Source of the DNA: a virus
Taxonomy: Duplodnaviria > Caudoviricetes
IMG/VR virus record: IMGVR_UViG_3300012038_000017
Location: 1 to 57,461 of that record
DNA length: 57,461 nt
Strand: one strand, 5' to 3'
A program made the translations under genes and the position numbers. Position 1 is the first letter of the stretch; every line of letters begins with the position of its first letter. Shown one piece after another: positions 3,610 to 41,866 of the stretch. Under the pieces are notes generated by a model. It did no database searches and was not told the DNA's origin. It was given only the letters and a program-made list of their open reading frames with translations.

Positions 3610-3649
3610 TTTATGCCTCCTGCCGTATTTAATACGGTTGCATTTGCGC

Positions 3650-3680
3650 AAGAAAAGAAGCGGGGTGGTTGTCCCCCGCT
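3650..3680 (-). terminator. intrinsic terminator/attenuator between SSB-like and primase genes
   Basis: AGCGGGG/CCCCGCT stem followed by TCTTTTCTT on the minus strand. Confidence 0.6.
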
Positions 3681-14315: not shown

Positions 14316-14336
14316 AGTGCAGACCCTTTCTAAAAG

Positions 14337-17344: not shown

Positions 17345-17400
17345 CTAATTCGATTCAGTCTCGCGCCCGTGAATGCGGGCGCGAGTGTGAAGCAAACTAG
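17345..17400 (-). ncRNA. intergenic hairpin family, copy 2
   Basis: CUAGUUUG.C.UUCA-CA-[CUCGCGCCCG/CGGGCGCGAG]-AC-UGAA.U.CGAAUUAG. Confidence 0.75.
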
Positions 17401-19613
17401 TTGCCATTCTCGATCTGCGGAATCAAATTCAGAATAGCTTGCAAGATTTCCTTAATATCTTGCAACCGTTCCGACATTTCGATCTTACCTTGCACCCGAT
17501 AATAGATATCCATATCTATTGTTCCTGGGATAAGTAAGTCGGTAATATGAAGCGGAACACGCGTGATAAGACGATGTGCTCTATCGTCAGCTTGCGAACG
17601 ATTTCCAGCACTCCAATTGCTGGAATAATAGATACAGTCAGTCGTGTTGGTTGTATATTGCGTTGGATTGTGTGGGTCAAAACCAACTAGATTAAGACCT
17701 ACGCCACCACTTGCAGCAATACCAACAAATACTTGCGTTTCCGGGTCGCAATTAAATTGGTCGATTGAATTTTGCTTGTCAGCATCTTTCATCGTACCGT
17801 GAAACCCAACTGATTTAATTCCATGTTTCGCGAGACGTTCGCGAATCATTTCAATATTTTCTTTGAAACAAACCCAAACCAAAGCTTTCCGATTCTTATC
17901 TTGTAGGATTCCTTCCATCGCGCTACCATTCTCGGAATCTTCCGAATCTTCTAATTCAGAATCCGGCTTATCGCCAATAAGATATCGAATAAGCAATTCC
18001 AACTTCGCGCCATCGGTGAAGTAATGCGCTTCTTTATTATCAAGACGGGCATAACCGCTTGTAATTTCAGCAAGACGCAACATCATCGACAACACGTTAT
18101 TAACTGTCATCGTTTCTGGTGCACCACGTGCTTTATCAGCCGCAATCTTTGCTTCGATTTCTGCACCAAGTTGCGATGCAAGTTGCACGTAAACACGTTT
18201 TTGCTCTTTCGACATTGAGGTTTCTAATGTTCCCCAAGTTTTCTTTGGCAAAAATGGTAATGCTTCCTCCTTTCCGATAATGAAAGCATATCGTGCCATT
18301 TTCTCCTTTAATAAAGGAATGTTCTGAAAACCAGTTAACTTCGCCATTCCTTCATGTGAAGCTTGATATTCACCGTAGAATGCCTTGAACGCGGAATAAG
18401 ATTCAAACCCGGAATATCCATTTCCAAGGAATTCAAGCTGACAGTAGATATCGAACGGAGTATTGCGGAACGGTGTTCCAGTTGCGAGAACTACCGATGC
18501 AAAGTGCCCGTTGCGCCGTGCTTCAAGATAATACTTTGTCCGCTTTGTCGATGGATTGCTAATATTGTGTCCTTCATCTAAAAGACACAAATCAAATTCC
18601 ATGCTGAGAGGAGCGGCAAGTAATTGCTTTGTTGCGACAAAGCTTTCATATCCACTAATGAGAACAATATGCTTCTCAAGATGCGCCACCGATGCAATAT
18701 CGGTAAGACAATTCACCAATCGTTCCGTGTTATTTAAACCACGGAGGGTGATGATATGAATCTTGTCAGCACAATTGCTGAATTGCGCGATCTCAGTTTT
18801 CCAATTAGTTCTTATTGTCTTTGGACAAGAGATAAGAGTAAAACTGACGCGACCAGATAATTCGGCATTGTGGATAGTGTGGTCTAATTTCCGAATCATC
18901 ATTAAAGTTTTGCCCGTTCCTGGTGCGCAGAAAAGAGCAAAAGCTTTAGAATGACAAGAATTAAAACTAGCACATTTCTGATATGCAGTTAATTCCTTGC
19001 CAGTACGCTCCTTCAGGATTCGGTCCTGTTCGTCAAACCATTCCGATGAAGGAACAATGCCATTTATTTTGTAATTGGCAGTTCTCTCAGCATTTTGCTC
19101 CGCCACAAATTCGCGGAGATAAATTTCTTGAAAGAATGGTTTCGCAGCATCCGAAATAACAGTTCGATTAGTCCATGCACGTTGAATAAGATGCACGGTG
19201 TAATCTGTCATTGGCACTTCGTATATTGGATGATATACGTTTGCACGATTTAATTTCGTTGCACCATGAAGGAAACGCTTTTCTACAAAGCGTTGAGCGC
19301 GAATAGAACGCGGTGAACGTGCAACTTTCATTTTGACGATAATAGGATTACCGTCGCCATCTAATTGCTCCATGTCTTGCATAACTTCGTCATATATTTC
19401 AATGACGAATTTATTAACAATCCGGCCATCGGAGCGAGTTGTTTTATGAACCGATAGGCGAAGGACAGCTTCACCTAGGTTCGTTTCTGGTTTCAAATAT
19501 TCCTGTGATGCCAACGTCTCAGCGATATATTCGCTATTACGCGCATCTAAAGGAATAATTTGATCGATTGAATTTTCGGACACTCCGGTGCCCAAATCAA
19601 CAGCGGTGCTCAT
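17397..19613 (-). CDS. SNF2-family SF2 helicase
   Basis: APGTGKT, LDEGH, ATGTP, SGGVGLNL, QADDRAHR. Confidence 0.92.
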   Translation of the reverse strand: MSTAVDLGTGVSENSIDQIIPLDARNSEYIAETLASQEYLKPETNLGEAVLRLSVHKTTRSDGRIVNKFVIEIYDEVMQDMEQLDGDGNPIIVKMKVARSPRSIRAQRFVEKRFLHGATKLNRANVYHPIYEVPMTDYTVHLIQRAWTNRTVISDAAKPFFQEIYLREFVAEQNAERTANYKINGIVPSSEWFDEQDRILKERTGKELTAYQKCASFNSCHSKAFALFCAPGTGKTLMMIRKLDHTIHNAELSGRVSFTLISCPKTIRTNWKTEIAQFSNCADKIHIITLRGLNNTERLVNCLTDIASVAHLEKHIVLISGYESFVATKQLLAAPLSMEFDLCLLDEGHNISNPSTKRTKYYLEARRNGHFASVVLATGTPFRNTPFDIYCQLEFLGNGYSGFESYSAFKAFYGEYQASHEGMAKLTGFQNIPLLKEKMARYAFIIGKEEALPFLPKKTWGTLETSMSKEQKRVYVQLASQLGAEIEAKIAADKARGAPETMTVNNVLSMMLRLAEITSGYARLDNKEAHYFTDGAKLELLIRYLIGDKPDSELEDSEDSENGSAMEGILQDKNRKALVWVCFKENIEMIRERLAKHGIKSVGFHGTMKDADKQNSIDQFNCDPETQVFVGIAASGGVGLNLVGFDPHNPTQYTTNTTDCIYYSSNWSAGNRSQADDRAHRLITRVPLHITDLLIPGTIDMDIYYRVQGKIEMSERLQDIKEILQAILNLIPQIENGN

Positions 19614-24319: not shown

Positions 24320-25819
24320 GTGAGAGTGGTCTGCACAATAATTGTAGTGAGCGCGCTATTTGTTTTACCGGGAATTACACAGGAGCCAACACCAGCAAGA
24401 ATACCGACGCCTGCTGATGCTACGGGTTGGGCGCTTGCGGATTTAGCTCTCATCCAAGCATCAGATCGACCATTTCAACGGTATATATGGATACCTTCAT
24501 TTGGCGATAAGCGATGGATAGCTGCAATAAATTTCACAATCAATACCGCAGTATCTCATTCGTCAGTAATTCAATTAGGTGCTGAATGTGCAAACGGATG
24601 GTTATTGCGGTATGATCTTCGTCGTCTTGCACCTTCACCACAGCAATTAGCGAAGTTAATTCAGACGTGGGACTCACTTGCATTACAGGATTCTTATTTT
24701 CATATCTCATCATCTACCCTGGGGGTGAGCAAATTACCTGCTGCAATACTCGGACCACATTTGAAACAACCAGAAGCAGTAGCATTAGCTGGATTAAACC
24801 TATCATCCGGTGGCATATACAGGGGAGATTGGTTTATTGCTAAAGCTCTTTCGACATTAGAAGGTGGAGCTTATTACGAATTTTTGCAAATTCAAAGAGT
24901 TGTAGAAAAGAATAGAACACCGCAAGGAGTATTTTTAGCTAGTTTAGGTGTATTTGAAGAACAAACTAAGTTAATAAGTGGTGATGAAAGGATTGCTATT
25001 TTCCGTTCAAATGTGACTTCAAAAGCACGTCGGGCGGATATTTTGTATGGATTAGGTCGTCGAGGAGCACTTGCAACAATTACTCATGATATTTCAGATA
25101 ATGATGTTCAAGTTGAAGCTCATCCACTTAGAAATCTTTTAGCCTTTCAAGATAAAGCGAGAGAAGTGATTGTGCAGAAAGCAAATGGAATGCACGTTTT
25201 TGCCCTCTTTGATAATAAAGGGAATTTTCAAGATGCAGTTCCTCCTGATATTGCTGCCGATCATTTAGTTCCTGCACCACACACTAAAAACCTACAGCCA
25301 GCAATTTCTTGTATTAGATGTCATGGTCCGTTCGATGGTTATCATCCGTTGCCAAATGACGTTCAAACTCTCCTTACTTCTAAACTTGATGTCTTTACCG
25401 ATTTAGTAGATGTTAATAATTCAAGAGAAGCAATTATTGACAGACTTGCCGGACTTTATTCTGGTCAACCTGATCTTCCTGACGCGCCACTTGGTAGAGC
25501 GAGACGTGATTATAAAGCTGCTGTTTATAAAATAACGCAAGACTCATATCCTGATGAAGTATCACCTGTTGTCGCGGTAAGTAATCACATATCTGAAATC
25601 TATGCTAATTATAGATATGATGTTGTGAGTCCGCAGAAAGCAGCTTTGGAGTTAGGACTTCACTCACTTGATGAATTTGTAATTGGAGAAGGTGAAGCCG
25701 TCGATCCAGTAGTAGGAAGTTTGAAAGCAGGAATTTCAGTAAATAGAAGCGATTATGAGCATGTATATGCTGATATGGCATTGCAAGTAAGTCTCACCAG
25801 AAAAAAGCAGGAGAATTAA
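24320..25819 (+). CDS. exported protein with a CxxCH heme-c motif
   Basis: Hydrophobic N-terminal signal; ISCIRCHG; AAGGAG RBS. Confidence 0.75.
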   Translation: MRVVCTIIVVSALFVLPGITQEPTPARIPTPADATGWALADLALIQASDRPFQRYIWIPSFGDKRWIAAINFTINTAVSHSSVIQLGAECANGWLLRYDLRRLAPSPQQLAKLIQTWDSLALQDSYFHISSSTLGVSKLPAAILGPHLKQPEAVALAGLNLSSGGIYRGDWFIAKALSTLEGGAYYEFLQIQRVVEKNRTPQGVFLASLGVFEEQTKLISGDERIAIFRSNVTSKARRADILYGLGRRGALATITHDISDNDVQVEAHPLRNLLAFQDKAREVIVQKANGMHVFALFDNKGNFQDAVPPDIAADHLVPAPHTKNLQPAISCIRCHGPFDGYHPLPNDVQTLLTSKLDVFTDLVDVNNSREAIIDRLAGLYSGQPDLPDAPLGRARRDYKAAVYKITQDSYPDEVSPVVAVSNHISEIYANYRYDVVSPQKAALELGLHSLDEFVIGEGEAVDPVVGSLKAGISVNRSDYEHVYADMALQVSLTRKKQEN

Positions 25820-25821
25820 TT

Positions 25822-26400
25822 GTGGATTTGCCAGAAGTAGATGGAGTTGAATTTAAGATCATCGAAGGTTATCCTGACTATATAGTTGGGAGTGATGGAA
25901 CCGTTTGCAGTAAAAGAAGTAATAAAAGAGGGATCGAAAGATGGTGGACTCAAATGAGTCCAAGTCGAGATAATGCTGGATATCTAAGAGTTGGATTAAG
26001 AGTATTAAATTCTCCACGAAAGTTTTTCCTTGTCCATCGTCTTGTGGCAATGGCTTTTGTGTCAGGATTTCAACCTGAATTAACAGTTAATCACAAAGAT
26101 GGAAATAAACAAAACAATTCTAAATCTAATTTAGAGTGGTGTACTTATGGAGAAAATCATAAGCACGCTTTCAAACTTGGATTAAGAAATAGTCATGGTG
26201 AAGCTAATTCCAATTGCACTGTTTCAGATGAAGAAGTGAGAGAAATTATTAAATGTGTTGAGAATGGTGAATCGCAAAGATCGGTTGCTTTGCGCTTTGA
26301 TATTTCATATCAGACTGTGAATGACTATTGGTTGGGTAAGCGACGTGCGCGTAGTAACCAAAATTTAGTTGTCCTTCCTGAAAATAAGGAACTTATATGA
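25822..26400 (+). CDS. NUMOD4-HNH homing endonuclease
   Basis: IEGYPDYIVGSDG, VHRLVA, VNHKDGNKQNN..SNLEW, C-terminal HTH. Confidence 0.9.
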   Translation: MDLPEVDGVEFKIIEGYPDYIVGSDGTVCSKRSNKRGIERWWTQMSPSRDNAGYLRVGLRVLNSPRKFFLVHRLVAMAFVSGFQPELTVNHKDGNKQNNSKSNLEWCTYGENHKHAFKLGLRNSHGEANSNCTVSDEEVREIIKCVENGESQRSVALRFDISYQTVNDYWLGKRRARSNQNLVVLPENKELI

Positions 26401-27633: not shown

Positions 27634-27657
27634 TTCTTTACTCGGAGGTCTGCACAA

Positions 27658-27906
27658 ATGTTGAAGATCCCTTTATTTCTAATGTTTGTTATCTTCTTTC
27701 TTGCCGCTGCTGACGCAGCTACAAATGTTATTTGCAGGAATGGAAGGTGACAACCAGTATATTCCCAACCTACAGTTAGTAGGTCTTGTTCTGGATCATT
27801 ACACAAACCTTTAACCGCCGCAGAAAAGTATGCAGCGGCTAAAGAATACCGAAAGCAAGCGTATTATGCAAAGCATCCAAATATTAAGGAGAAGTCAAAG
27901 AAATAA
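27658..27906 (+). CDS. 82-aa secreted protein with in-frame TGA at codon 31 (recoded or pseudogene)
   Basis: GGAGG RBS; signal peptide; CRNGR-TGA then 51 more open codons to TAA and a terminator. Confidence 0.55.
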
Positions 27907-28018: not shown

Positions 28019-28477
28019 ATGGCTCGCTTAACGGTAGAACAGAGATTTTGGAAAAAAGTTGGACCAGTAACAAATACAGGCTGCATGGAGTGGCTTGCTT
28101 ACCGTAATGATGATGGTTATGGTATATTTTCCCTTGAACGCGGATTAAATATAAAGGCACATCGTTATGCCTATTGGCTTAAACACGGTGATTTTGATGA
28201 GAATTTATTAGTTTGTCATACTTGTGATAATACACTTTGTGTAAATGTTGCGCATCTTTTCTTAGGCAGTAGAAAAGACAATACTGGTGACATGCTTAGG
28301 AAAGGACGTTCTGTGTCATCTTTGACAGTGGAACAAGTAATCGAGATTCGTCGTAGGTATTGGGAAGAAAGTGAATTACTTCGTGTACTTGCTGAGGAAT
28401 TCAGTGTTGGAATAAGTGGTATCTACTCAATAGTGTGTAATCGAACTTGGAAACATTTACTTTCAAATCAAAAGTAA
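28019..28477 (+). CDS. HNH homing endonuclease
   Basis: RFWKKV..CMEW..GYG..AHRYAY..VCHTCDN..CVN..HL; C-terminal HTH. Confidence 0.9.
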   Translation: MARLTVEQRFWKKVGPVTNTGCMEWLAYRNDDGYGIFSLERGLNIKAHRYAYWLKHGDFDENLLVCHTCDNTLCVNVAHLFLGSRKDNTGDMLRKGRSVSSLTVEQVIEIRRRYWEESELLRVLAEEFSVGISGIYSIVCNRTWKHLLSNQK

Positions 28478-28526: not shown

Positions 28527-28784
28527 TTGACCGAAACCCAAAAAGAAACCAAGCATGAACACGCAGCAACAAAACCAACGCAATACGATCAACCCGGCGC
28601 GAGTTCCTACGTTGGAGTTCCAACATCACAAATCACGGAAGAAAATCCTTACGGTAATTTGCCAAATGATCCGGCAGGATTCAAAAGAATAGTTACGAAA
28701 GGGCCGGACGAATTCGCAAAGGAAGATCGAGAACGGGAAGAAAAGCAAGCTGCTGAGAAGGAAAAAGAAGCAAAGAAGAAATAA
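28527..28784 (+). CDS. small charged hypothetical protein
   Basis: AAGGAG RBS before TTG 28527. Confidence 0.6.
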   Translation: MTETQKETKHEHAATKPTQYDQPGASSYVGVPTSQITEENPYGNLPNDPAGFKRIVTKGPDEFAKEDREREEKQAAEKEKEAKKK

Positions 28785-28787
28785 CGA

Positions 28788-28910
28788 TCTTTGCACAACT
28801 CGGTAATGATAGCCAATTATATCATTACCGAGAAACAATAGGGTTCTTTGTGCAGACCCCGCCTGTCGTACTTGTACCCGCGAGGAAGCAAGTGCGGCAG
28901 GTTATTTTTC
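28788..28910 (+). ncRNA. candidate 3'UTR-derived sRNA ending in a terminator
   Basis: 13-bp hairpin 28799-28832; segment TTTGTGCAGACCCC 28847-28860; terminator stem 28862-28901 (G-U pairs on + strand) followed by TTATTTTT. Confidence 0.55.
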
Positions 28911-28949
28911 TCAAGTGTTTCTCGAAAACTTTTGAGAAAGGTAATTACA

Positions 28950-29165
28950 ATGTTCAGTCTACTTGCCCAAGCAGCATTCGGTGGTTATTCTTTAATCCAG
29001 CTTGCGATCTTTATCATCGTAGTAGCTGGAGTTGTAGCTATCGTAGTAGTGATTTTGAAGCAACTTGGTGTAACAATTCCACCTTGGCTAATTGCAATTT
29101 TGTGGATAGTGTTAGCCGTGATCGTCGGAATTTTTGCAATTAAAGTAATTGCATCAATGCTATAG
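28950..29165 (+). CDS. 71-aa two-TM membrane protein, holin-like
   Basis: Two hydrophobic helices separated by KQLGVTIPP; GAAAGG RBS. Confidence 0.55.
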   Translation: MFSLLAQAAFGGYSLIQLAIFIIVVAGVVAIVVVILKQLGVTIPPWLIAILWIVLAVIVGIFAIKVIASML

Positions 29166-29176
29166 GATAAGCAGTA

Positions 29177-31942
29177 ATGGAATTCCCAGCATTTGCATAC
29201 GGTGGTGAAGTATTTCTTGGTCCTGCTACAGCAGGATCAGCAAATCAAGTATTGCGCCGTGGTGCAAATCCATCTGAAACATTATGGGGTGATGCTCCAG
29301 TAACATTGCCTGGTGGATTAGATGGTCAACTTCAATATAATGGTGGTAGTGGTCAATTTAATGGTGTAAGCGGTAGTTATGTTTATGGTGTTACAGGAAA
29401 TAATGTAGGATTAGAAGGAGAACTTACCGCTAGAAATATAGTATTAAATCCACCTAATACTATTGGAATTAAGTTAAACCTCGCCGCCGGTCAAACTGCT
29501 AATGCAATTGAAGTCAATAGTAGCGGTGGAAGTGGTGGTGATCGTTTTAAGGTTGCCGCAAATGGTGATATTACTGTTACAAGTAGTAATTGGCCTACCA
29601 TTACACTTTTATCTACTTCTGGTAATGGTGGCACTCTCGACCTTCGTTCTGGATCAAATTCTTGGCAAATATATAATCATTCAGGAGTATTGAAGATTAA
29701 TAACGGTGGTTTAGATCATGTTCATATAGAAAGTGTTGGGGGAAATATTGGGAATGTTGCTCTTGGAAGGGATTTAGTAACTGCTATTGCTCAATTACAT
29801 CAAAAGGTTCCCGCTCTCGACGTTACTGGTCATCGAATTGATTTAGCAGTTTCGCAAACTGCACCAGCGATTGAAGTGCGGAATTCTGCGAATGCTACTG
29901 TTTTTCGAGTTGCTGCAACTGGTGCTCTTTCAGTTACTGGCGGCATTGGCACTGATGGCCCTATTACTACCAGTAATACTATTACTGCCGGGAGTCATAT
30001 TCAAACTGGTGCTGTATCCGCTTTTTATTGGACAGGTTTATCAATAATTAAATCACCAGCAGATGGAGTTATTCGACTAACTAATAACGCAGAAGCGGAT
30101 TTCAACCGCTTGCAATTCGGTGGTACCACAAATGCTTTTCCCGCCCTCAAACGTAATCTCACCGCTTTAGAATGCAAGTTGGCAGATGATTCAGCTTTTG
30201 CACCGTTCAAATGTGGCACTTTCGATAGTCGCGCATCAGGTTATCCAAATAGTTCAATTCAATTCACAGATGGTTATGGTGGAATAACTAGCGGTCCTGT
30301 AATTCAAATAACAAGCTATGCTGGATCGCATACAGGTAAGATTTATACAAGTAATGCTGGTTATCTAACACTACAAAGTGCAAATGATTCTGGAATGATC
30401 TTTTTTGGATCAGGTGACGCTTCTATAAACATAAATGGATTTGTTTATCAAGCAGTATCTACTAATAAAGTTGGTCACCGATTAGATTTCGCAGTTGGCC
30501 AATTAGTAGATATGGCTCAATGGAATCCAGCTGCATCACTTCCCGGCGAGCGAGCGAGAATAACAAAGAATGGTGAGTTCTCGCATAAAGGTTTAACTGG
30601 TGCTAATTCTGAACAATTTGGTGAAGGTGCCGTTGCAAGAGGTCAAGACTCTCTTGCCGTTGGTAATAATGCTACTACTGGTGCTGGAAATAGTTTTAGT
30701 GTTGCGTTAGGACGAAATTCATCTGCTGTTGGTTATGGTTCTACATGCGTTGGTTATAGCGCTAATTCTGCCGGTGTGTCCGCCTATTCTGTAGCGATAG
30801 GGCATAGTGCTGGGGTTATTACGAATCAATATGCTATTGCAATAGGCACTCTTGCTGTTTGTGGGGGTATTGGAATAGGAGGTAGAGCTAATGTAACTGT
30901 TGATAGTGGTATTGGAATGGGTTATAATGTATATAATGCTTCAGCAAATCATTTTGTTGCAGGTAGTGATTCATCACCAATTAATGATATTTATTTTGGT
31001 CAAGGTATTTTGCGAGCAACTCCAACCTCTTACACAATTCATGGGACTAATTCTACAGGAGCCGCCGCAGGTGGCGACGTTCGCATTGTCGGCGGAAGTT
31101 CTGCTAGTGGTACTGCTGGGAATGTAATTCTTTGTCATGATGGTACTGCTGCGAGAGGTAATGTTCTTATTGGTACTCTTACAGGTACAGGCTCTAAACT
31201 ATTTGTAGTCGGTACAAGTTCACCTTTTGAAGGTGATCGCGTTGCATCATTCTTTGATAATAATTTACAAGTTGGTGTTAATGTAACTATTGGTTGGACA
31301 GGTGGTGGCGTAAATGGTAAATATAAATCATTTGTAGTTGATTCTGCTGGTTTTGGTATTGGCAGGATGACGGATACTCTTGTATCCGCACCAACAGTAG
31401 ATTTTCGTATTGATAATACCGGCAATGTTGCAATTGGGAGTTTGACTGCTTCTGCCAAGTTGCAAGTGATTCATACACTTACTCAATTACGAATTGGGTA
31501 TAATGCTGCTAACTACTTTAATGTGACTGTTGACAGCGCTGGAGCTACTGCTTTTGAGACAGCATCTGGACAAAGTTTTACTTTCCAAGGTGCTAGAAGT
31601 GGTGCCACATTTCATACCTATATAAGTAATACATCCAATTCAACAGTGAATAATGGTACTGCGTTAAACATCAGTGTTGCGGATTTGAATTCAGGTGATC
31701 CGTATATTTCTTTTGGCGTTACTGGTGCTTCTGTTTGGTATATGGGCGTAGATAATAGTGATGGTGATAAATTCAAGATTGCGTATGGAAGTCAATTAGG
31801 TACTGGTGACACATTTATGATTGATGGTGCAGGTGTAGTCCAATTCGGTACATTTGCTGCTCTTGCTGGTGAAACATTGAACGGTTATATCACAATTCGA
31901 GATAAAGCAGGAACAACACGTAAACTCGCAGTAATCGCATAA
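29177..31942 (+). CDS. virion fibre/adhesin with YadA-head-like repeats
   Basis: Gly/Asn/Thr-rich; PGGLDGQLQYN; xxAxGxxA repeats; GNVxIG repeats. Confidence 0.75.
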   Translation: MEFPAFAYGGEVFLGPATAGSANQVLRRGANPSETLWGDAPVTLPGGLDGQLQYNGGSGQFNGVSGSYVYGVTGNNVGLEGELTARNIVLNPPNTIGIKLNLAAGQTANAIEVNSSGGSGGDRFKVAANGDITVTSSNWPTITLLSTSGNGGTLDLRSGSNSWQIYNHSGVLKINNGGLDHVHIESVGGNIGNVALGRDLVTAIAQLHQKVPALDVTGHRIDLAVSQTAPAIEVRNSANATVFRVAATGALSVTGGIGTDGPITTSNTITAGSHIQTGAVSAFYWTGLSIIKSPADGVIRLTNNAEADFNRLQFGGTTNAFPALKRNLTALECKLADDSAFAPFKCGTFDSRASGYPNSSIQFTDGYGGITSGPVIQITSYAGSHTGKIYTSNAGYLTLQSANDSGMIFFGSGDASININGFVYQAVSTNKVGHRLDFAVGQLVDMAQWNPAASLPGERARITKNGEFSHKGLTGANSEQFGEGAVARGQDSLAVGNNATTGAGNSFSVALGRNSSAVGYGSTCVGYSANSAGVSAYSVAIGHSAGVITNQYAIAIGTLAVCGGIGIGGRANVTVDSGIGMGYNVYNASANHFVAGSDSSPINDIYFGQGILRATPTSYTIHGTNSTGAAAGGDVRIVGGSSASGTAGNVILCHDGTAARGNVLIGTLTGTGSKLFVVGTSSPFEGDRVASFFDNNLQVGVNVTIGWTGGGVNGKYKSFVVDSAGFGIGRMTDTLVSAPTVDFRIDNTGNVAIGSLTASAKLQVIHTLTQLRIGYNAANYFNVTVDSAGATAFETASGQSFTFQGARSGATFHTYISNTSNSTVNNGTALNISVADLNSGDPYISFGVTGASVWYMGVDNSDGDKFKIAYGSQLGTGDTFMIDGAGVVQFGTFAALAGETLNGYITIRDKAGTTRKLAVIA

Positions 31943-31955
31943 AGGAAGTCTGCAC

Positions 31956-32300
31956 ATGACTGGAACCGTAAAAGCTGGTATAGATTTCAACACACCGCTC
32001 AAAAATCTTCGTGGCGAGGAATTGAAGGATATTACTGATGGAAAAGAGCAACCTATTACCTTAAAAACGGTATGTGTTGAAGCTCTTTTGACCGCTTATC
32101 CAAAAGAAGAAATAAGCGGTACTGAGAAGATGAAGCGATACCGAATTGCCAAGAAGGTTGATGATGCGAATGGTGAGGTTCTTCAACTTTCAGTTGAAGA
32201 ATTGAAATCATTGAAAGAACTAGTTGGTATTCGATTTAGCCCCCTCATCGTGGGCGCTGCGTATGCTATTTTGGACCCGACTGAATTAACCGAGAAGTAA
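31956..32300 (+). CDS. probable fibre-associated chaperone
   Basis: Directly follows the fibre; EKMKRYRIA..LSVEEL..LKE pattern common after phage fibre genes. Confidence 0.5.
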   Translation: MTGTVKAGIDFNTPLKNLRGEELKDITDGKEQPITLKTVCVEALLTAYPKEEISGTEKMKRYRIAKKVDDANGEVLQLSVEELKSLKELVGIRFSPLIVGAAYAILDPTELTEK

Positions 32301-32304
32301 TACG

Positions 32305-33174
32305 ATGCGTACATTAGAAGCCACAGCGCCAGAAACGCTTACTTCTTTTACCGTTGAGGTAATAGCTGGTGGCGTTGTCGTTGAAACTATTGTAATGTCG
32401 CAAATTGCAGCAGAAGGACCAACTTGGCAAGGAGAAATAACTGATCCTCTCAGTACAGGTTTTTGCAAAATCAACTTCTTTTACAACGGTAGTGCAGTTG
32501 CAAATGCCAGATATCATGCCAATATTTCATCTGTTGACGGGTCGATCTCATATTGTTATGATATGGTTTACAGTGACGTGGTGGTTGATAGTTCTGGTGG
32601 CTCTGGCACCGGAGCAAGAACAGTAGTTATTACTGTGATTGATGGTGTTACACTTCTTCCAGTTGAAAATGCTAATGTTCGTTTAACTTCTGGTTTGAAT
32701 ACTAGAGTTCAACCAACTGATGCTGTTGGCGAAGTTACTTTTAATGTTGATGATGCAACTTGGATTGTTGCTATTACTTCTTTTGGTTATTCTTTTCCAG
32801 GTGCTTCACTTATTGTCAATGCTGACGCTGCAATTACTTATGAGCTAACTCCATTAGGTAGTACAATTCCGCCAGTTCCACCTGGTTTTTGTATTCTTCG
32901 TATTAGAGTTTGGACAGTAAGTGGAAATCCAGCAGAAGGTGTAACTGTTAAAGTACAAGTTGAAGAAGTTCCACCTGGAGTTGGTGAAATATTTGATAGA
33001 TCGGTTCAAGTTAAAGAAACTGCTGCTGACGGTTATGCGAATTTTGAGGTACCCCGTGGTTCAGAAGTAAAGTATTGGGTTGGTCCAGTTGAAGAAAGTG
33101 TTGATGAAATTCCTTCGGATGAGGATATTGTTTACGTGGAAAACCAGTTGGGATTACCAACGGTTTCGGTGTAG
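32305..33174 (+). CDS. virion protein with carboxypeptidase-regulatory-like beta-sandwich domains
   Basis: Two PvEnA.V...TdA.G...F repeats. Confidence 0.55.
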   Translation: MRTLEATAPETLTSFTVEVIAGGVVVETIVMSQIAAEGPTWQGEITDPLSTGFCKINFFYNGSAVANARYHANISSVDGSISYCYDMVYSDVVVDSSGGSGTGARTVVITVIDGVTLLPVENANVRLTSGLNTRVQPTDAVGEVTFNVDDATWIVAITSFGYSFPGASLIVNADAAITYELTPLGSTIPPVPPGFCILRIRVWTVSGNPAEGVTVKVQVEEVPPGVGEIFDRSVQVKETAADGYANFEVPRGSEVKYWVGPVEESVDEIPSDEDIVYVENQLGLPTVSV

Positions 33175-33183
33175 AAATGAACG

Positions 33184-34515
33184 ATGATACTCCAGACACA
33201 GCCAATTACAGAGGCACCGAAGTGCCATTGGGAGAAATTCAGGTATCATCCTGTTCAATCTGCACTTTGGGTTAATCGAAGTCAGCACGAAGAAGTTGTT
33301 GCTGGTCGTGGTAGCGGTAAAACAGTATTATGTCGGAGAAAGATGATTCTTGACATGGCTTTATCAAAGCCGTGGAATGATCCTTTATATTATTATGTAT
33401 TACCTACTTTCCAGCAAGCAAAACGAGTTGCATGGTATCCTTTTTTGCGAGATATACCTAAGAATTGGTATAATCCCCGTACAGGAGTCAACAGAACTGA
33501 CCTCTCGATTGAATTGTATAATGGATCAAAACTTTACATCATTGGAGCAGATAAACCAGCACGTCTTGAAGGAAATCAGGCCGATTGGGTTATGGTTGAT
33601 GAAGGTTCTGACCAAAAACCAGGATTGGTTGAGAATACAATTTTCCCTATGCTCACAAGGAAAAACGGTAAGTTTACAAGATTGGGTATTCCGAAAAGAA
33701 CAGGCATTGGGAGAGTTGAGTTTAGGGAGTATTATGAACGTGGAATGCGTGGTGAGGGAGGAGTTAAATCCTTTTTTTGGAAAACGATTGAAACGTGTAC
33801 CCCAAAAGAATTAGAATTGATTGAAGCACGTCGGGCCAATATGGACCCGAAGAATTATGAAGAACAATATGAAGCGAAATGGTTGGATATTGGTGGAAGT
33901 GTTTACTATGGTTTTACCGAAGCAAACCTTTCGCACGAAGCAAAATACGATCCGAAACTTGAAATAATGGTTGGTTGTGACTTTAATGTTACTCCGATGA
34001 GTTGGACATTAGGGCACTTTACAGACGGTAAACTTTACATCTTCGATGAAATTCATTTAGAAGAAACGCATACGCAAGCGACGATGGATTATCTTCATGG
34101 TAAGTATTACACTCACATGGCCGGATGGCGTTTCTTTGGAGATGCAAGCGGACGAGCAAGAAAAACCTCAGCTACTCGATCAGATTATGCAATTATTAAA
34201 AACGATGCTAGATTCGGACAAAAGAAAGTACATTTCCCTCCACGTAATCCTCACGTGCGGGATAGAATCGCCTCAGTCAATAGAGCATTTCAAAATGCAG
34301 CCGGTGAGATTAGCTGTTACATCAATCCGAAGTGCCAAAAACTAATTCGCGATTTGAATTCGATGAGCTACATTGAAAACACGATGGAATTAGAAGATTA
34401 TAGCGGAACGCAAATTGGGCATATGTCAGATGCTTTTGGATATAAGGTTCATTGGCTAATGCCAATTCGTGTTGAGTATACTTCGATTCCGGCAGTATGG
34501 AGTACGGCGAGTTAA
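33184..34515 (+). CDS. terL: terminase large subunit
   Basis: VAGRGSGKT, VMVDEG, C-terminal nuclease GCDFN, DASG, HMSDA. Confidence 0.95.
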   Translation: MILQTQPITEAPKCHWEKFRYHPVQSALWVNRSQHEEVVAGRGSGKTVLCRRKMILDMALSKPWNDPLYYYVLPTFQQAKRVAWYPFLRDIPKNWYNPRTGVNRTDLSIELYNGSKLYIIGADKPARLEGNQADWVMVDEGSDQKPGLVENTIFPMLTRKNGKFTRLGIPKRTGIGRVEFREYYERGMRGEGGVKSFFWKTIETCTPKELELIEARRANMDPKNYEEQYEAKWLDIGGSVYYGFTEANLSHEAKYDPKLEIMVGCDFNVTPMSWTLGHFTDGKLYIFDEIHLEETHTQATMDYLHGKYYTHMAGWRFFGDASGRARKTSATRSDYAIIKNDARFGQKKVHFPPRNPHVRDRIASVNRAFQNAAGEISCYINPKCQKLIRDLNSMSYIENTMELEDYSGTQIGHMSDAFGYKVHWLMPIRVEYTSIPAVWSTAS

Positions 34516-34532
34516 AGCTGTAATTTTGGAAG

Positions 34533-35915
34533 ATGCCACTTGCACTTGAGCCGGTAATCAAATTATCTGATCCAGATAATAAAAAGAGTGAGAAAACTCC
34601 TGCGCAGATTCTCGATCATATTGGTTGGGATTCTCGAATCTTTCACCATCAACATCCACTTGATTATCGTCAAATACGCTGCTATTCGAAAAACCCTACT
34701 GCGAAACTTGCAACGTGGGCAATTCTTTCGCAGATGATTCATACGCCGTGGGTGCCAAAGAATTACAGAGGTAAAGCGACAAAAGAGATGATGGACTATC
34801 TCGAACAGTCCCTCACTCCATTGCGAAATTTGTTCTTGATGCACGCAGTATTTAATACGCTTAATTATGGTTGGGGACCATTTGAAGTTGTTTGGAAACC
34901 AGAAGAAGGATATGTGTATATCCATGATTTTAAGGCACTACTCCACGATTTTACAGATATTCTTGTTTACGTTGATAGTGGTCAATTTGCTGGTTTTACT
35001 AATGAAACATTTGGATTTACGGAAGTAAACAATTCCGCGAATAAAGTTCTCGGAATGTATGCTCTTAATACGAACTTTGAATACGAAGGAACAGATTATT
35101 ATGGCGAATCGGTATATGAAACCATCGCGCCCGCCATTAATGCTTGGAACAATGTGGAGAAAGCAGCTTCGCGCTATGATTCTAAAATTGCCGGAGCGAC
35201 CTGGGTCATTTATTATCCTGTCGGCAAAACACCGTACAATGGAGTGCCAGAGGAAAATGATGTTATCGCTCGTAGATTGCTCACCACGCTTGAATCATCA
35301 GGATGTTTAGCAATACCTGACGAAATACAAGATTGGATGGATGATACACTTGATAGAGAAGTCAAAGGGAAATGGCGAGTAGAACTTATTACTGCAACAG
35401 GTGGTGGACAAGATATGTTCATCGACCGAGAAAAGTATCTCGACGTATTAATGATGCGAGGATTTGGATTCGCAGAACGATCTATTCTCGAAGGTAAGCA
35501 CGGAACGAAAGAAGATGCACAAGAACACGGAGATATTTCTCTCGCAATTGTTGATACTAGGCATCGCTTGCTCACTACTTGCCTTAATCTACAAACTATT
35601 CCTCATGCTCTCAGTATAAACTTTGGAAAGAAAATGGCGTATGAAGCGGGTATTGAACCTGCTCCGCTAGTTGATTCACAGTTTGCTCTTATTAAAGACA
35701 TCTACCGAGTTTTACTTCAGAATCCAAGAGTTGCTGAGGCTGAAGTTGAACGGATTAATATGGTAGATATGAAAGTAGAATTGGGAATACCGAATGATGG
35801 AAAGAAAACTGAATTACCTGAACCAGAGCCGACAGGTGGCGGACCTCCTTCATTAACTGCTACACCGAAAAAAGAACCTGGAAAGCCAACAGTGAAGGAG
35901 CAAAAGAATGCCTAA
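34533..35915 (+). CDS. portal protein (Mu gp29/DUF935-like)
   Basis: Follows TerL; LNYGWGPFEVVW, YYGES and AQEH segments. Confidence 0.85.
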   Translation: MPLALEPVIKLSDPDNKKSEKTPAQILDHIGWDSRIFHHQHPLDYRQIRCYSKNPTAKLATWAILSQMIHTPWVPKNYRGKATKEMMDYLEQSLTPLRNLFLMHAVFNTLNYGWGPFEVVWKPEEGYVYIHDFKALLHDFTDILVYVDSGQFAGFTNETFGFTEVNNSANKVLGMYALNTNFEYEGTDYYGESVYETIAPAINAWNNVEKAASRYDSKIAGATWVIYYPVGKTPYNGVPEENDVIARRLLTTLESSGCLAIPDEIQDWMDDTLDREVKGKWRVELITATGGGQDMFIDREKYLDVLMMRGFGFAERSILEGKHGTKEDAQEHGDISLAIVDTRHRLLTTCLNLQTIPHALSINFGKKMAYEAGIEPAPLVDSQFALIKDIYRVLLQNPRVAEAEVERINMVDMKVELGIPNDGKKTELPEPEPTGGGPPSLTATPKKEPGKPTVKEQKNA

Positions 35916-36492
35916 TTACACTTCACAAGAGAAGTTAAATATTGTGTTCGGAGAAACGAATGTTATTCGTTGGGCGAATCTCTCGAACACTAATAACATC
36001 AACAACAAAGAAATCAAGGATCGAATTGACTACTTCTGTTTGATCGCAACTTCTTATGTTAACGGTAGATTCCAACTCACGCGTTACACTGATGATATTC
36101 CTTTCGTTGTTGACCATGTACCCCACATGGTTGAATTTATCACAACTTTGCTTGGTGGTGCTCTCCTATTTGACGGTAGAGTTAATCGAGTAATGTCTGA
36201 GGATAAAGAGGTTAATAAGAGTCGTCGTGAGTTCGGAAAGTTAATGCGACAGATTCTTTGCGGTCAATTGAAATTAGAAGATCCTTTATCTGGTGAACTC
36301 CTTGGAACCTCCTGCTACCTTGCACCATCTGTTGCGTTAGCCCCCAGCAGCGGTGCAGGTAGCGGGAATGGTTGTTGTGCAGGTTGTAATTGTCCTTGTT
36401 GTCGTTGGTTGAGTTGTTTTACTACCTGCCATAACTCAAGTTGCTATTGTTACTCTTGCATCAATTCACGAGTTCTCATTTACGCAAATTAG
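35908..36492 (+). CDS. head-tail adaptor (Mu gp36/DUF1320-like) with Cys-rich tail
   Basis: YTSQEKL..FGE...ATSYVNG..RY..P pattern; 11 Cys in 30 residues near the C-terminus. Confidence 0.7.
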   Translation: MPNYTSQEKLNIVFGETNVIRWANLSNTNNINNKEIKDRIDYFCLIATSYVNGRFQLTRYTDDIPFVVDHVPHMVEFITTLLGGALLFDGRVNRVMSEDKEVNKSRREFGKLMRQILCGQLKLEDPLSGELLGTSCYLAPSVALAPSSGAGSGNGCCAGCNCPCCRWLSCFTTCHNSSCYCYSCINSRVLIYAN

Positions 36493-36503
36493 GGGATAAA
36501 CCA

Positions 36504-37676
36504 ATGCCATATACATGCAAAGCAGTTGGTGAGAAATACCATTTGACGAAACGTGGTTCCGATAAAGCATTCGGAACTCACGATTCGCAAGCTGATTGTA
36601 TGAAGCAGATGCGTGCGTTGTACGCGAATGAAACAACGCGACCTCAGAACATCACTTTCGACGGTATGATTTTGCAACCGTTTAATTTTGATGAAAAGGT
36701 TGCAAATGCTGGAAATGAGATCACTCTTGTAATTAATTCACAAGGCGGTGATTTTCTTGATTCAATTACGATGCACAATAAGATTCGCAACAGCGGTAAG
36801 AAAGTCACCGCTTATATAAATCCATTTGCGATTTCTGCCGCTGCTGTTCTTGCGTTGTCCGCAGATGAGATTTATATGGTTGAGAATGGAGTAATGAAGT
36901 TTCATGCTCCAATTGCTCGACAGGATGGGTATAAAGACGCTGCTGAATATGAAAAAGTTGCAGCAGGTTTGCGTGTAGCAGAAGATATGCTTGTCAAAAC
37001 AATGGCAAGCAAGATCAAGAAAACAGAAGAAGAATGTCGCGCTATTATGAACAGCGACGCTTATTATACTGCTGACCAAGCGTTAGCAGCAGGAATAATC
37101 GACGGGATTATTCCAATTTATCGTGACCCTGGTTCAATCTCAAATCTGGGTTTTCCTGCTCAGATTATGAACTTTCTTGAGGAGAAAAAAGATATGCCGC
37201 TCCAAGAACTTTGTGCAAAGTTTGGTGTTGCAGATGAAACAGCTTTGGAAACCTTGATTGCAAACTTGCAGAAGAATCAAGTCAAAGCGCCGCCGGTTGT
37301 CACACCTGCTCTTGTGAACATGGTGAAACAATCGCGCGAGAAAGATTTGGAGTATCTTGTTACTGACGGTATTTGCACGCCAGATACCGTCAATGCTTTG
37401 AAACTCGAATTCTTGAATGATGATTCGATGAAGTCGGATTGCATCAAAGATGATCCGAATTCGCAATTCAACAAGATCATCGGAGCAATCAAAAAGAATC
37501 CGAAGGTTTTGAACTTCAATCCGAAAACTGGTCGTCAAGAGCCGATTAATGATCCACCGGCTGATGATGAAGAATCGGAAGAAAATCTTGATCCGAAAAA
37601 GAATCCTCTTATTGCGAACATGATTGATCGCAAAAAGCAATGGGATGAGCAGAACAAATTAATGGGAGTTCAATAA
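36504..37676 (+). CDS. ClpP-type prohead protease fused to scaffold
   Basis: INSQGG, AISAAA, KFH, YTADQALAAGIID; start ATG 36504. Confidence 0.9.
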   Translation: MPYTCKAVGEKYHLTKRGSDKAFGTHDSQADCMKQMRALYANETTRPQNITFDGMILQPFNFDEKVANAGNEITLVINSQGGDFLDSITMHNKIRNSGKKVTAYINPFAISAAAVLALSADEIYMVENGVMKFHAPIARQDGYKDAAEYEKVAAGLRVAEDMLVKTMASKIKKTEEECRAIMNSDAYYTADQALAAGIIDGIIPIYRDPGSISNLGFPAQIMNFLEEKKDMPLQELCAKFGVADETALETLIANLQKNQVKAPPVVTPALVNMVKQSREKDLEYLVTDGICTPDTVNALKLEFLNDDSMKSDCIKDDPNSQFNKIIGAIKKNPKVLNFNPKTGRQEPINDPPADDEESEENLDPKKNPLIANMIDRKKQWDEQNKLMGVQ

Positions 37677-37749
37677 TAAGGAACTCTTTGGTTTTCCCTT
37701 TTTGACGTCTTTTCTCCGTAATCTCCGAAATTCAAAGGAAATAACTGAT

Positions 37750-38187
37750 ATGGCTACAGAACGCCTTTGCACTCCTGGCGATTTGGTTCCTTACTTGCTG
37801 AACCCGCACTTCAATACTGTTTCGGCTATTATCCGAAACCCAACTGCTGGTGTTCAGAGTTTGTATAACATTGTTGGTATGCCAGTTGTACTTGGCACCA
37901 ATGGTGCTGGTTACAATCTCATGGTTGCTGGTGGTGAAGCCAACGTACTTGGTTTAATTCTTTCAGGACCGCCGGGCGGTTCTGCTGAATCTGTTGCTGC
38001 TACAACAAATTCCAAGTTTCCGTATCAAGTTCTGAAACAAGGTCCAGTTGTCGTTAATCGCGACAAGATTTCACTTGTCGATATTGCTGGTGCAGCATTG
38101 AATGTTACTTCAATTGTAACTGCATTGTTGGCACTCAACAAGGATTTCGATTTCCGTACTGAACCTGTGAAAAAGACAACGCTGTAA
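37750..38187 (+). CDS. head decoration protein
   Basis: Lies between protease and capsid genes; lambda gpD-like size and Gly/Ala/Val composition. Confidence 0.7.
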   Translation: MATERLCTPGDLVPYLLNPHFNTVSAIIRNPTAGVQSLYNIVGMPVVLGTNGAGYNLMVAGGEANVLGLILSGPPGGSAESVAATTNSKFPYQVLKQGPVVVNRDKISLVDIAGAALNVTSIVTALLALNKDFDFRTEPVKKTTL

Positions 38188-38242
38188 TCATCCTCACGGG
38201 GCAATCTTCTCTCGCTACACATCTTAACCGGAGATAATTCAT

Positions 38243-39277
38243 ATGCCGATGTCAACAACGCTTGATATTTTCAACAACAACGCATTTTCTGCGTCGAGTT
38301 TGTCTGTCGCAATTCAAACCGGGCCTTATAAGCCTCGAATGATTGGTGAAATGGGTCTTTATTCTGAAGATCCAATTCGTACTACAACTGCGTGGATTGA
38401 AAAGCGACAAGGGAAATTAGCGCTAATTAAAACTAGCGCTCGTGGAACAATGGGAGATGTTCGATCCACATTGCCACGTTCCGCAGTTCCGTTTCAGATT
38501 CCTCACTATCCTTATCATCAGAACATTCTTGCTGATGATGTTCAAAATGTTCGTGCATTTGCTTCCAACGAACTTATGGAAGTTTCGGAGCATGTGAACG
38601 ATCAACTTGAAGGAATGAAAGACGATCACGAAGTTACGCAAGAATTCGGTCGTGTGAAAGGAATTCAAGGTATTGTCTATGACGCAGATAATACCACTGT
38701 CATTTACAACTTCTTTACTCAGTTTGGTTTGTCCCAAACTTCGGTGAATTGGTTGACAACTGACGTTTCTTTCGTGACGACAACGAATACTGTTATTCGT
38801 ACAATTTCCGATAAACTCGGAAGTCAATCGTTTAGCGGTATTGTTGCATTCTGTGGTGATAATTACTTTGATGCTGTCATTGGGCATCCAAGTGTTCGCG
38901 CGGCGTATGATCGTTGGAAGTTTGGTGAATTCTTCCGAACGAATAAACTTGGTCCGCAATTCTACAAAGCGGCAAGTTACAATGGTTTTGAATTTCAAGA
39001 CATCTATTTCATCAATTACCGTGGTCAAATTGGTGACGCGAAATTCATTGCAACGAACGAAGCGTATTACGTTCCGTTCGGAATTCCCAATCTGTTCATC
39101 GAAGTATTGGCACCTGCCGATATGATTCCTTTCATTAATAAGAAGGGAAAGCGTTGGTATGCAAGTAAAGAATTCCTTCCTCATCAGACTGGAATTCAAC
39201 TTTACACGCAACACAACATTCTTCCTGTTCCATCTCGACCTGATGTTGTTATTAAGAGCACTTGGGCTGCTGCTTAA
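38243..39277 (+). CDS. major capsid protein (Phage_cap_E-like)
   Basis: DIFNNNAFSASSL..P..IGEMGL..IPH..ADDVQNVRAF..N.LP..RP pattern. Confidence 0.92.
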   Translation: MPMSTTLDIFNNNAFSASSLSVAIQTGPYKPRMIGEMGLYSEDPIRTTTAWIEKRQGKLALIKTSARGTMGDVRSTLPRSAVPFQIPHYPYHQNILADDVQNVRAFASNELMEVSEHVNDQLEGMKDDHEVTQEFGRVKGIQGIVYDADNTTVIYNFFTQFGLSQTSVNWLTTDVSFVTTTNTVIRTISDKLGSQSFSGIVAFCGDNYFDAVIGHPSVRAAYDRWKFGEFFRTNKLGPQFYKAASYNGFEFQDIYFINYRGQIGDAKFIATNEAYYVPFGIPNLFIEVLAPADMIPFINKKGKRWYASKEFLPHQTGIQLYTQHNILPVPSRPDVVIKSTWAAA

Positions 39278-39310
39278 TTGTTTGTTTGCTTCCCTGGCGG
39301 GATGGTCGCG

Positions 39311-41314: not shown

Positions 41315-41344
41315 TTCTTTTGGTCTAGTTGGGGGTCTGCACAA

Positions 41345-41866
41345 ATGTCTGAGAAAAATGTTCCATCTCTTTCTGCAAACGATTCAAAACTTTTTGACGC
41401 TGCAATTGAATTTAAGGTAGGTGATGAAGTATTTTATGCTTCAATGCTTACTGATCGAGATTTTGGAGATTTAGATCAGTGGATTAAATCTAAGTATATT
41501 AACATGGCATATGAAGCTGCTGATCTTGCTGTTGAAGAAGCAAGTAATGATCGTGAGCGATCTTCTGCATTGAATCGAAGAAAGGAAATGATCGAAACTG
41601 CACTTCTTTCTGCAACTAGTATCGGATGGGGTAGTGATGAAGGTTGGAATTTTATGATGACGAGTGAAGGTATGATTCGGTTAGGATTTCAATTTTGTCG
41701 TAAACGTCATCCAACTTTGAAGTTTAAAGAGTTTGATAAAGAAGCGCGGAAAGATGTAGATAAGACTGTTGTTGAAATTGATAAGATTTACGGGCGATTT
41801 TACCCGAAAAGAGTAAAGGAAGAAAATACAGGAGGAACTCCTGATGGGAACTCGAAAAGTGGATAG
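41345..41866 (+). CDS. tail assembly chaperone
   Basis: Position between tube and tape measure. Confidence 0.65.
   Translation: MSEKNVPSLSANDSKLFDAAIEFKVGDEVFYASMLTDRDFGDLDQWIKSKYINMAYEAADLAVEEASNDRERSSALNRRKEMIETALLSATSIGWGSDEGWNFMMTSEGMIRLGFQFCRKRHPTLKFKEFDKEARKDVDKTVVEIDKIYGRFYPKRVKEENTGGTPDGNSKSG

Follow-up and report, generated by a model that had tools for sequence, protein, structure and literature searches.

We sought to determine why one 8-nucleotide (nt) sequence, GTCTGCAC, stands at the start regions of five genes of a tailed phage, and why its exact complement lies in an intergenic region of the same genome that is predicted to form a structured RNA. The DNA analysed, referred to here as the window, is the entire IMG/VR record IMGVR_UViG_3300012038_000017 (57,461 bases, G+C 39.6%), a tailed-phage genome whose completeness is estimated by CheckV at 88%. 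An earlier note on this DNA had pointed out the motif and its inverted copy, and had proposed either a switchable small RNA (sRNA) from a 3' untranslated region (3'UTR) or a shared protein operator. Our analysis favours a phage base-pairing RNA, derived from a 3'UTR or located next to a terminator, that would block ribosome binding at five genes of the phage and whose seed would be masked in cis by an anti-seed. We give this reading an even chance of being correct. The observations that carry it are the placement of the motif relative to start codons, the complementarity of the inverted copy, the structure in which that copy lies, and conservation and covariation in one related phage fragment.

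Placement of the 8-mer at translation starts

Exact counting on both strands of the whole genome gave six copies of GTCTGCAC versus 1.10 expected, and none of 100 shuffles reached six. All six copies that the note had described, five at gene starts and one inverted, were found, the positions it gave being those of the start codons:

14317-14324, minus strand: 1 nt before the ATG of gene 14013-14315 (minus strand; 100 amino acids (aa), isoelectric point 4.05, poly-Asp/Glu tail)
24329-24336, plus strand: in codons 4-6 of the open reading frame (ORF) 24320-25819 (plus strand; 499 aa, GTG start at 24320)
27648-27655, plus strand: 2 nt before the ATG of ORF 27658-27750 (plus strand; 30 aa, hydrophobic, signal-peptide-like)
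28850-28857, minus strand: the inverted copy
31948-31955, plus strand: directly abutting the ATG of gene 31956-32300 (plus strand; 114 aa)
41335-41342, plus strand: 2 nt before the ATG of gene 41345-41866 (plus strand; 173 aa)

In four genes the 8-mer sits 3' of the Shine-Dalgarno sequence, between it and the ATG, and these pre-ATG copies occupy most of the 13-30 nt spacers behind the preceding stop codon. The copy in the 499-aa gene had been assigned to codons 3-7, a range that refers to an 11-mer; the 8-mer itself occupies codons 4-6 counted from the GTG. The five copies at genes all read in the sense direction. The sixth is inverted and non-coding, and it reads as the exact complement of the motif on the strand that is transcribed with its neighbours. 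Each of the six lies within or at the margin of a short non-coding spacer.

Placement was scored by ranking all 8-mers that end 0-2 nt before an ATG opening an ORF of at least 30 codons. GTCTGCAC came first with four copies, the runners-up having three, and among 150 first-order Markov genomes there was none in which any 8-mer reached four (the maximum was two in 96 of them and three in 54). One-mismatch variants of the motif were not enriched in the genome (17 variants; 23 matches in total versus 29.97 expected). Placement, not raw count, is what exceeds chance for this 8-mer. An ATG gap of 0-2 nt combined with a uniform sense orientation points to a role at translation initiation, exerted on the mRNA and not on the DNA.

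Other readings of the repeated sequence were tried and rejected. A leaderless promoter was rejected because the ATG gap varies from 0 to 2 nt, and an extended Shine-Dalgarno sequence because the preceding purine tracts differ from site to site (GGAGG, GGAA, AAGGG and GGGGG) while the motif stays constant. An invertible segment, bounded by the inverted 8-mers at 28850 and 31948 around the fibre gene, was set aside as well: no similarity extends past the 8-mer, and no recombinase was found.

The predicted RNA structure containing the inverted copy

The inverted copy is located in a 165-base gap between two plus-strand genes, and the candidate RNA is the 3'UTR of the first of them. The features of this region are:

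28527-28784, plus strand: upstream gene, 85 aa, TTG start after AAGGAG, conserved in the related fragment L002 (ORF 2073-2453), no family match
28789-28799, plus strand: anti-seed CTTTGCACAAC, in sense orientation and nearly identical to the start-site motif, unique in the genome
28790-28798 with 28848-28856, plus strand: helix P1 of the minimum-energy fold, UUUGCACAA with UUGUGCAGA, 9 bp including one G-U
28799-28832, plus strand: predicted hairpin P2, 13-bp stem and 8-nt loop containing AATTAT
28832-28841, plus strand: linker GAAACAATAG, single-stranded in the fold, unique in the genome
28847-28860, plus strand: seed TTTGTGCAGACCCC (as RNA, UUUGUGCAGACCCC), with the core GTGCAGAC (28850-28857) exactly complementary to the start-site 8-mer
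28861-28912, plus strand: predicted intrinsic terminator P3, 15-bp stem, GCGA tetraloop and GCGAGGAAG apex, then TATTTTTCTC
28950-29165, plus strand: downstream gene, a 71-aa membrane protein

The 128-nt plus-strand RNA 28785-28912 is predicted to fold at -55.6 kcal/mol (z-score -7.6), and none of 200 shuffles folded as well. The minus strand of the same segment folds more weakly (-43.5 kcal/mol); the G-U pairs of the fold exist only in the plus-strand RNA, and together with the T-run they make the structure strand-specific. The seed is situated between P2 and P3, directly 5' of the terminator as the note had described, and the terminator is genuine in having both a hairpin and a T-run, the stem being followed in the RNA fold by the U-tract UAUUUUUCUC. 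A simple terminator scan did not list P3, whose apex in this fold is larger than the 3-8 loop limit of the scan. The pairing in cis of 28790-28798 with the seed, which the note had also proposed, is present in the minimum-energy fold as helix P1. Linker letters GAAACAAUAG and four C residues are unpaired in the fold.

The predicted folds agree with the suggestion that the RNA is switchable. The mean unpaired probability of the seed core is 0.17 in the full 3'UTR form and 0.60 without the anti-seed. In the 5'-shortened form the core lies in the loop of a small hairpin with a stem of GGG/CCC and UCU/AGA. The linker, A-rich and unpaired, may be where cleavage releases the seed.

Downstream of the seed, a further hairpin, P4 (28900-28946), joins the U-tract of the terminator to GAGAAAGG, the Shine-Dalgarno region of gene 28950-29165; on this model, read-through transcripts would hide the start site of that gene. 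A search of Rfam gave no match at gathering scores in the whole window and four weak sub-threshold matches at chance level in 28700-29000. A minus-strand ORF, 28626-28838, that starts after the inverted copy was considered and rejected, its L002 counterpart starting elsewhere.

Conservation and covariation in a related phage

Relatives were sought with the large terminase and with a 32-sequence profile, which yielded 240 loci; only one, L002, is close, and the next is 57% identical. Closer terminase homologues are P0002 (84%) and P0003 (69%), with others at 55-62%, and the fragment L001, which was close in the terminase search and matches window 32194-39290, covers no 8-mer site. L002 shares 92% DNA identity with the window in the terminase/portal block and 65-75% upstream of it, with replaced segments. 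It spans three of the six 8-mer sites and keeps all three exactly, the inverted copy included. The site of the 30-aa ORF is at 1952-1959, ahead of ORF 1962-2051, whose length and sequence pattern are kept while its spacer and coding flanks differ. The site of gene 31956 is at 4834-4841, within 175 bp left unaligned by BLAST.

Within the element, the 9-mer GTGCAGACC of the seed is invariant in L002, and the 8 bases before it and the terminator stem after it have been replaced. The remaining invariant blocks are CTTTGCACAAC, the AATTAT of the P2 loop, GAAACAATAG, the GCGAGGAAG of the P3 apex, and GTTATTTTTCTCAAGT, so that the T-run does not change. The stems covary: among 17 pairs of P3, 3 are the same, 4 carry one-sided changes and 10 two-sided changes, and among 12 comparable pairs of P2 the corresponding numbers are 2, 0-1 and 9-10. 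Helix P1 is predicted in L002 too (7 bp, one G-U), and P4 is kept (2573-2618) with a different inner stem. The seed core of L002 has a mean unpaired probability of 0.27 in the full form and 0.77 without the anti-seed, and in the short form it likewise lies in a hairpin loop, closed by a stem (UGAGG/CCUCA) whose letters differ from those of the window. An invariant seed, anti-seed and linker beside rewritten stems are what would be expected of an element that is read by its sequence and not by its shape alone.

The 8-mer is private to this phage group, since its copies in more distant relatives equal expectation: across 241 loci of relatives and near-relatives (2.72 Mb) there are 83, the uniform expectation. 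Pattern scans returned 34 unrelated chance matches without BLAST similarity, then none, and again none. For the proteins 40406-41314 and 24320-25819, the searches found no close relative.

Several relatives have pre-ATG motifs of their own. In L139 (2426-5270), GGAGAGCCGCC-ATG occurs at 5 genes; in L077/L076, GGGGTAGTAAA-ATG and variants of it occur at many genes; and L044 carries GGGGGCGGGCA-ATG. Such motifs, each specific to its phage, may be common. In the parts of these genomes that are covered, no convincing inverted copy of the respective pre-ATG motif was found.

Predicted pairing of the seed with start regions

The seed at 28847-28860 is complementary to 41331-41344 at 14 of 14 positions and to the 27648 site at 13 of 14, exactly as had been claimed, and its 8-nt core is the exact complement of all five gene-associated sites. 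At 24329-24336 the complementarity to the seed RNA extends over 11 contiguous bases, read by eye. In a genome-wide RNAduplex scan of 22,974 windows (mean -9.6, standard deviation 3.1 kcal/mol), site 41335 formed the best non-self duplex of the genome at -28.6 kcal/mol. Site 27648 scored -26.8 kcal/mol with the seed region in that scan and -30.7 in a separate computation, in which site 14317-14324 on the minus strand scored -22.5 kcal/mol. In the genome-wide scan 41335 and 27648 are among the best non-self partners.

The seed is fully Watson-Crick paired to the start-site 8-mer, whereas with its cis partner it forms one G-U pair and leaves its last C unpaired, and this is the case in both phages. 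Imperfect pairing in cis versus perfect pairing in trans fits a partner in trans that could out-compete the mask.

Genes carrying the motif

None of the five motif-bearing genes has a significant family match. The 100-aa protein encoded by 14013-14315 on the minus strand has a C-terminal half made almost entirely of Asp and Glu, and its composition, taken alone, suggests a DNA mimic. The 499-aa protein of ORF 24320-25819 had been called a cytochrome, a weak label for which one CXXCH motif and a signal-peptide-like N-terminus speak, with no match among Pfam families. Gene 31956-32300 is the first after a 921-aa fibre-like gene and lies two genes ahead of the large terminase. Downstream of the capsid gene, gene 41345-41866 lies between genes for proteins of 302 aa and 723 aa. 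Its order among these genes, and nothing else, suggests the tail assembly chaperone position; the earlier label of chaperone, likewise weak, has this order in its favour and no family match behind it. A 60-aa ORF, 41844-42026 on the plus strand, overlaps the 3' end of this gene in another frame, before the 723-aa gene, and the two could be a frameshift-extended chaperone pair.

Genome context and a CsrA homologue

Genes run leftward in two blocks (about 1-20 kb and 51.6-57.4 kb) and rightward in one (about 20.2-51.6 kb). Protein family scans covered 51 proteins against PHROGs, 30 of which were also scanned against Pfam, and they provided the following landmarks, together with a CsrA homologue:

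775-3651, leftward block: primase/MCM-type helicase
7573-7767, minus strand: CsrA homologue, canonical, 64 aa from the ATG at 7767 (Pfam PF02599, 78 bits, cut-off 27, E 3e-23)
17397-19613, leftward block: SNF2 helicase
33184-34515, rightward block: large terminase
34533-35915, rightward block: portal
36441-37676, rightward block: ClpP-like protease
38243-39277, rightward block: major capsid protein
54356-56356, leftward block: family A DNA polymerase

Most of the remaining proteins among the 51 scanned had no family match. No repressor was found among them, the sole helix-turn-helix (HTH) domain being part of an HNH endonuclease, and six-frame scans detected no integrase, resolvase or HTH_3 domain, absences that the 88% completeness of the record leaves short of proof. 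No tRNA or tmRNA was found in the window. A search for the T4 RegA family (Pfam PF01818) gave no match, but the same search detected no control genome either and is therefore uninformative.

The 7573-7767 protein also matches the PHROG 'CsrA-like regulator', and given this homologue, the programme of the phage may include post-transcriptional control at ribosome-binding sites. CsrA proteins bind GGA. Csr/Rsm sponge RNAs present several GGA motifs in hairpin loops to a CsrA protein. The phage has the CsrA gene, and its candidate RNA contains a single GGA, in the conserved apex of P3, versus five in L002. That CsrA could be a partner of the candidate RNA is speculation, the 8-mer itself being without GGA.

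The phage, which occurs at groundwater or sediment sites, represents a lineage without a close cultured relative: blastn against cultured phages gave no match to the window, and the large terminase reaches at best about 31% identity to that of any cultured phage. Six of the 12 best terminase matches in prokaryote assemblies are contigs of Planctomycetota metagenome-assembled genomes, and one secreted protein of the window has a 'Planctomycete cytochrome C' match below threshold (18.7 bits versus a cut-off of 22).

Two HNH endonuclease genes lie at 25822-26400 and 28019-28477 on the plus strand, the first of them with the HTH domain. The second looks like a mobile insertion, because the aligned blocks on either side of it are about 660 bp apart in the window but only about 37 bp apart in L002. 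In the 921-aa fibre-like gene (29177-31942), the middle (29304-30470) is swapped in L002 (2976-3344) for an unrelated 367-bp segment, so that with this shorter segment the fibre-like protein of L002 is 659 aa long; the swap looks like a host-range-type mosaic. Contigs of four DNA sequencing runs show diverged strains, one with the L002-type fibre-gene replacement, and the contigs of run X14 have the same joint in the fibre-like gene as L002.

Discussion

In the mechanism that we propose, the 3'UTR of gene 28527-28784 would be a structured regulatory RNA carrying, from 5' to 3', the anti-seed, P2, the linker, the seed and the intrinsic terminator. The seed core GUGCAGAC would pair in trans with GUCUGCAC, located between the Shine-Dalgarno sequence and the AUG in four mRNAs and in codons 4-6 in the fifth. 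Such pairing would block the 30S subunit and thereby repress translation of a dispersed regulon, consisting of the acidic early protein, the secreted 499-aa protein, the 30-aa peptide, the product of the gene that opens the packaging block and that of the gene where a tail chaperone would be expected. As long as the transcript is full-length, the anti-seed would mask the seed through helix P1. A shorter form would present the seed in the loop of a hairpin; it could be produced if the A-rich linker were cleaved or, with lower likelihood, if transcription began at an internal promoter. The model places the 3' end of this plus-strand RNA at about 28905-28910 and its 5' end near 28785 or, for a short form of roughly 80 nt, near 28826-28845. 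Alternatively, the RNA may act as part of the mRNA 3' end and not only as a released piece. The sRNA reading of the earlier note is supported in part, by the invariance in L002 of the seed, the anti-seed and all three covered sites and by the covariation of both hairpins. That the RNA accumulates as a discrete species, is processed, pairs in trans and represses its targets is what we infer from these observations.

A number of points weigh against this reading. By raw count, the enrichment of the 8-mer fails multiple testing, and at least 12 other 8-mers exceed it in the ratio of observed to expected copies. No start site carries a one-mismatch or wobble variant of the motif, which is stricter than in typical sRNA regulons. 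In the duplex scan, a window at 29936 that is not a proposed target scores -27.6 kcal/mol, on a par with the real sites. Complementarity in L002 comprises the 8-bp core only (about -12.4 kcal/mol), with unpaired flanks at both visible targets, and the 14 of 14 match in the window may be partly luck. The single informative relative is L002 (9,367 bp), and in this sole comparison the core of seed and target never varies, so the covariation of seed and targets that the note had suggested looking for is not seen. There is no convincing promoter: the best candidate, TTGCAC-N18-AATTAT, matches at 7 of 12 positions by eye and does not appear in the promoter scan output. None of the 24 listed sequencing runs is on record as RNA, the RNA itself being predicted, and no Hfq gene was found in the record. 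Finally, since the pre-ATG motifs of L139, L077/L076 and L044 have no visible inverted copy, a start-site motif does not need an antisense RNA.

This last circumstance is also what might be expected if the 8-mer were an RNA operator for a protein, such as a RegA-like repressor or a nuclease, or a signal read by the ribosome, with the 28850 copy serving as the strand that pairs with the near-copy CUUUGCACAAC in P1 to form a masked decoy. The exact placement relative to the AUG, the strict invariance of the 8-mer with no mismatch variants at starts, the sense orientation of the anti-seed as a near copy of the motif, and the presence of a CsrA-family translational regulator in the phage all suit such an operator. 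It leaves unexplained, however, why in both phages the masking strand should be perfect to the distant motif and imperfect to its own cis partner, and why the unpaired C that ends the seed 8-mer should be conserved together with the C that follows it; moreover, the GGA that CsrA binds is absent from the 8-mer. We consider such an operator or signal unlikely on balance. A site on double-stranded DNA for a phage or host protein (a roadblock, a stoperator-like repressor or an activator), with 28850 as its sixth occurrence, would read alike in either orientation, would account for the location of all six copies in or at the edge of non-coding spacers, and would explain the conservation in L002 equally well. 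Orientation-biased sites at gene junctions have precedent in Cluster A mycobacteriophages (PMC3203893). A roadblock does not require an ATG gap of 0-2 nt at all four upstream sites, however, nor the sense orientation of all five gene-associated copies, and a DNA site does not predict an anti-seed and a seed-in-loop hairpin that are kept by different stems. With no repressor, integrase, resolvase or HTH_3 domain found in a record from which one could be missing at 88% completeness, we regard the DNA-site explanation as improbable.

The element could instead be a leader or attenuator that acts in cis on the structural operon beginning at 28950, in which P1, P2 and the linker form a sensor, the terminator and P4 form the expression platform, and the motif match is incidental or allows the mRNAs to open P1. 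Conserved unpaired blocks adjoin covarying helices as in riboswitch-like leaders, the late-gene block begins directly downstream of the terminator, and P4, present in both phages, sequesters the Shine-Dalgarno region of gene 28950 by pairing it with the U-tract. On the other hand, there is no Rfam family match, and the model explains neither why the motif is enriched at five starts nor why the element carries its exact reverse complement; with 1.10 copies expected genome-wide, an antisense copy is unlikely to fall by chance within the few percent of DNA that is non-coding. We rate a purely cis-acting element lower again, as very improbable. The remaining alternative is that the start-site copies are real and the inverted copy is a functionless chance match kept by hitch-hiking, a view to which the shortness of 8-mers, the existence of several that are more over-represented by raw count and the reliance on one relative lend some weight. 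If that were so, the 9-mer would not be expected to stay invariant in L002 while the 8 preceding bases and the 15-bp stem were almost wholly replaced, nor would its anti-seed partner be invariant as well. We hold a chance copy to be the least probable of these explanations.

The base-pairing RNA that we favour can be compared with several known systems. The nearest in layout is the SAS motif of Cluster K mycobacteriophages, a start-associated sequence of 13 bp that is present in 11-19 copies, all in one orientation, 3-7 bp before start codons, and whose consensus GGGATAGGAGCCC contains the Shine-Dalgarno core (PMC3203893). Four K1 phages have a single reverse SAS each, away from gene starts, and the SAS sites are contrasted there with orientation-biased gene-junction sites of Cluster A (PMC3203893). 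In our own inspection of the phage Anaya (JF704106; L278/L279) we found 16 forward SAS and one reverse SAS, at 59870-59882 with one mismatch. The reverse SAS is situated where 385 bp separate gp96 from gp97; on the plus strand it forms part of the loop of a predicted hairpin, downstream of a strong terminator-like hairpin. The window resembles this arrangement in having sense copies near start codons (five) plus one reverse copy, and the layout of the Anaya reverse copy is the same as that of the inverted copy in the window. The window motif differs in being another sequence, of 8 letters versus 13 and with 5 copies versus 11-19; it stands 3' of the Shine-Dalgarno sequence, whereas SAS contains it, and two of its copies lie in the structural module. 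Because of the differences in sequence, length and Shine-Dalgarno position, we do not consider the window element a member of the SAS family. A further difference suggests a mechanism: the reverse copy in the window belongs to a terminator-ended RNA structure with covarying stems, which provides a concrete candidate for the reader of the motif. Whether SAS is read by an RNA or a protein was left open by its describers (PMC3203893), and papers from 2024 and 2025 still call its role unknown (PMC11373665, PMC12699233). A literature search, the supplements of the SAS papers aside, found no paper proposing an antisense RNA for SAS, as far as the accessible texts go.

Trans-acting sRNAs of phages include VpdS of vibriophage VP882 and PreS of lambda, and VpdS is reported to affect the levels of phage and host mRNAs (PMC12197685). 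The candidate resembles both as a small phage RNA that would act by base pairing. VpdS and PreS were found by RNA sequencing and depend on Hfq, whereas the window RNA is predicted from the sequence of a record in which no Hfq gene was found, and its proposed targets are five start sites of the phage itself that share an exact 8-mer. It combines features looked for in base-pairing sRNAs, namely a 3' intrinsic terminator, a seed to start regions, and conservation of the seed above that of its flanks (in one of one informative relative).

Older paradigms are also pertinent. The c4 antisense RNA of P1/P7 serves immunity, and its target sites lie within one operon. It is made from the same transcription unit as its target, and through exposed segments it pairs with short complementary stretches that overlap a ribosome-binding site. 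The window sites, in contrast, are five in number and are distributed over three transcription blocks and both strands. RegA of T4 is a protein that represses translation of several phage mRNAs through a short sequence in their start regions; the likeness lies in one regulator, a short sequence at several phage start regions, and repression, and the difference is that a protein model does not predict a complementary copy. The stoperators of Cluster A mycobacteriophages are dozens of 13-bp sites across transcribed regions, whereas the window has six exact 8-mers with no enrichment of variants, and no repressor or marker of a temperate lifestyle was found in it (record 88% complete).

Base-pairing RNAs encoded by phages have been described in a few cultured phages of Escherichia coli and Vibrio, while start-associated motifs have been described in phage genomes since 2011 without a mechanism. 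The element described here links both themes, in that a start-site motif has its exact complement within a covarying, terminator-ended RNA. We tentatively suggest, as an idea that is more doubtful than the local reading, that SAS-type motifs are handles for a phage 'anti-start' RNA, released from a 3'UTR and unmasked so as to place a dispersed regulon under one switch, possibly with CsrA at the GGA apex. By analogy, the same logic could explain the single reverse SAS of the K1 mycobacteriophages. If the base-pairing reading is true, the long-standing SAS-type question would be reducible to a reporter experiment, and a start-site k-mer with an inverted copy beside a terminator would provide a sequence-only rule for recognizing regulons in uncultured phages. 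The window would then also exemplify an RNA regulon from a lineage of phages that has no cultured relative.

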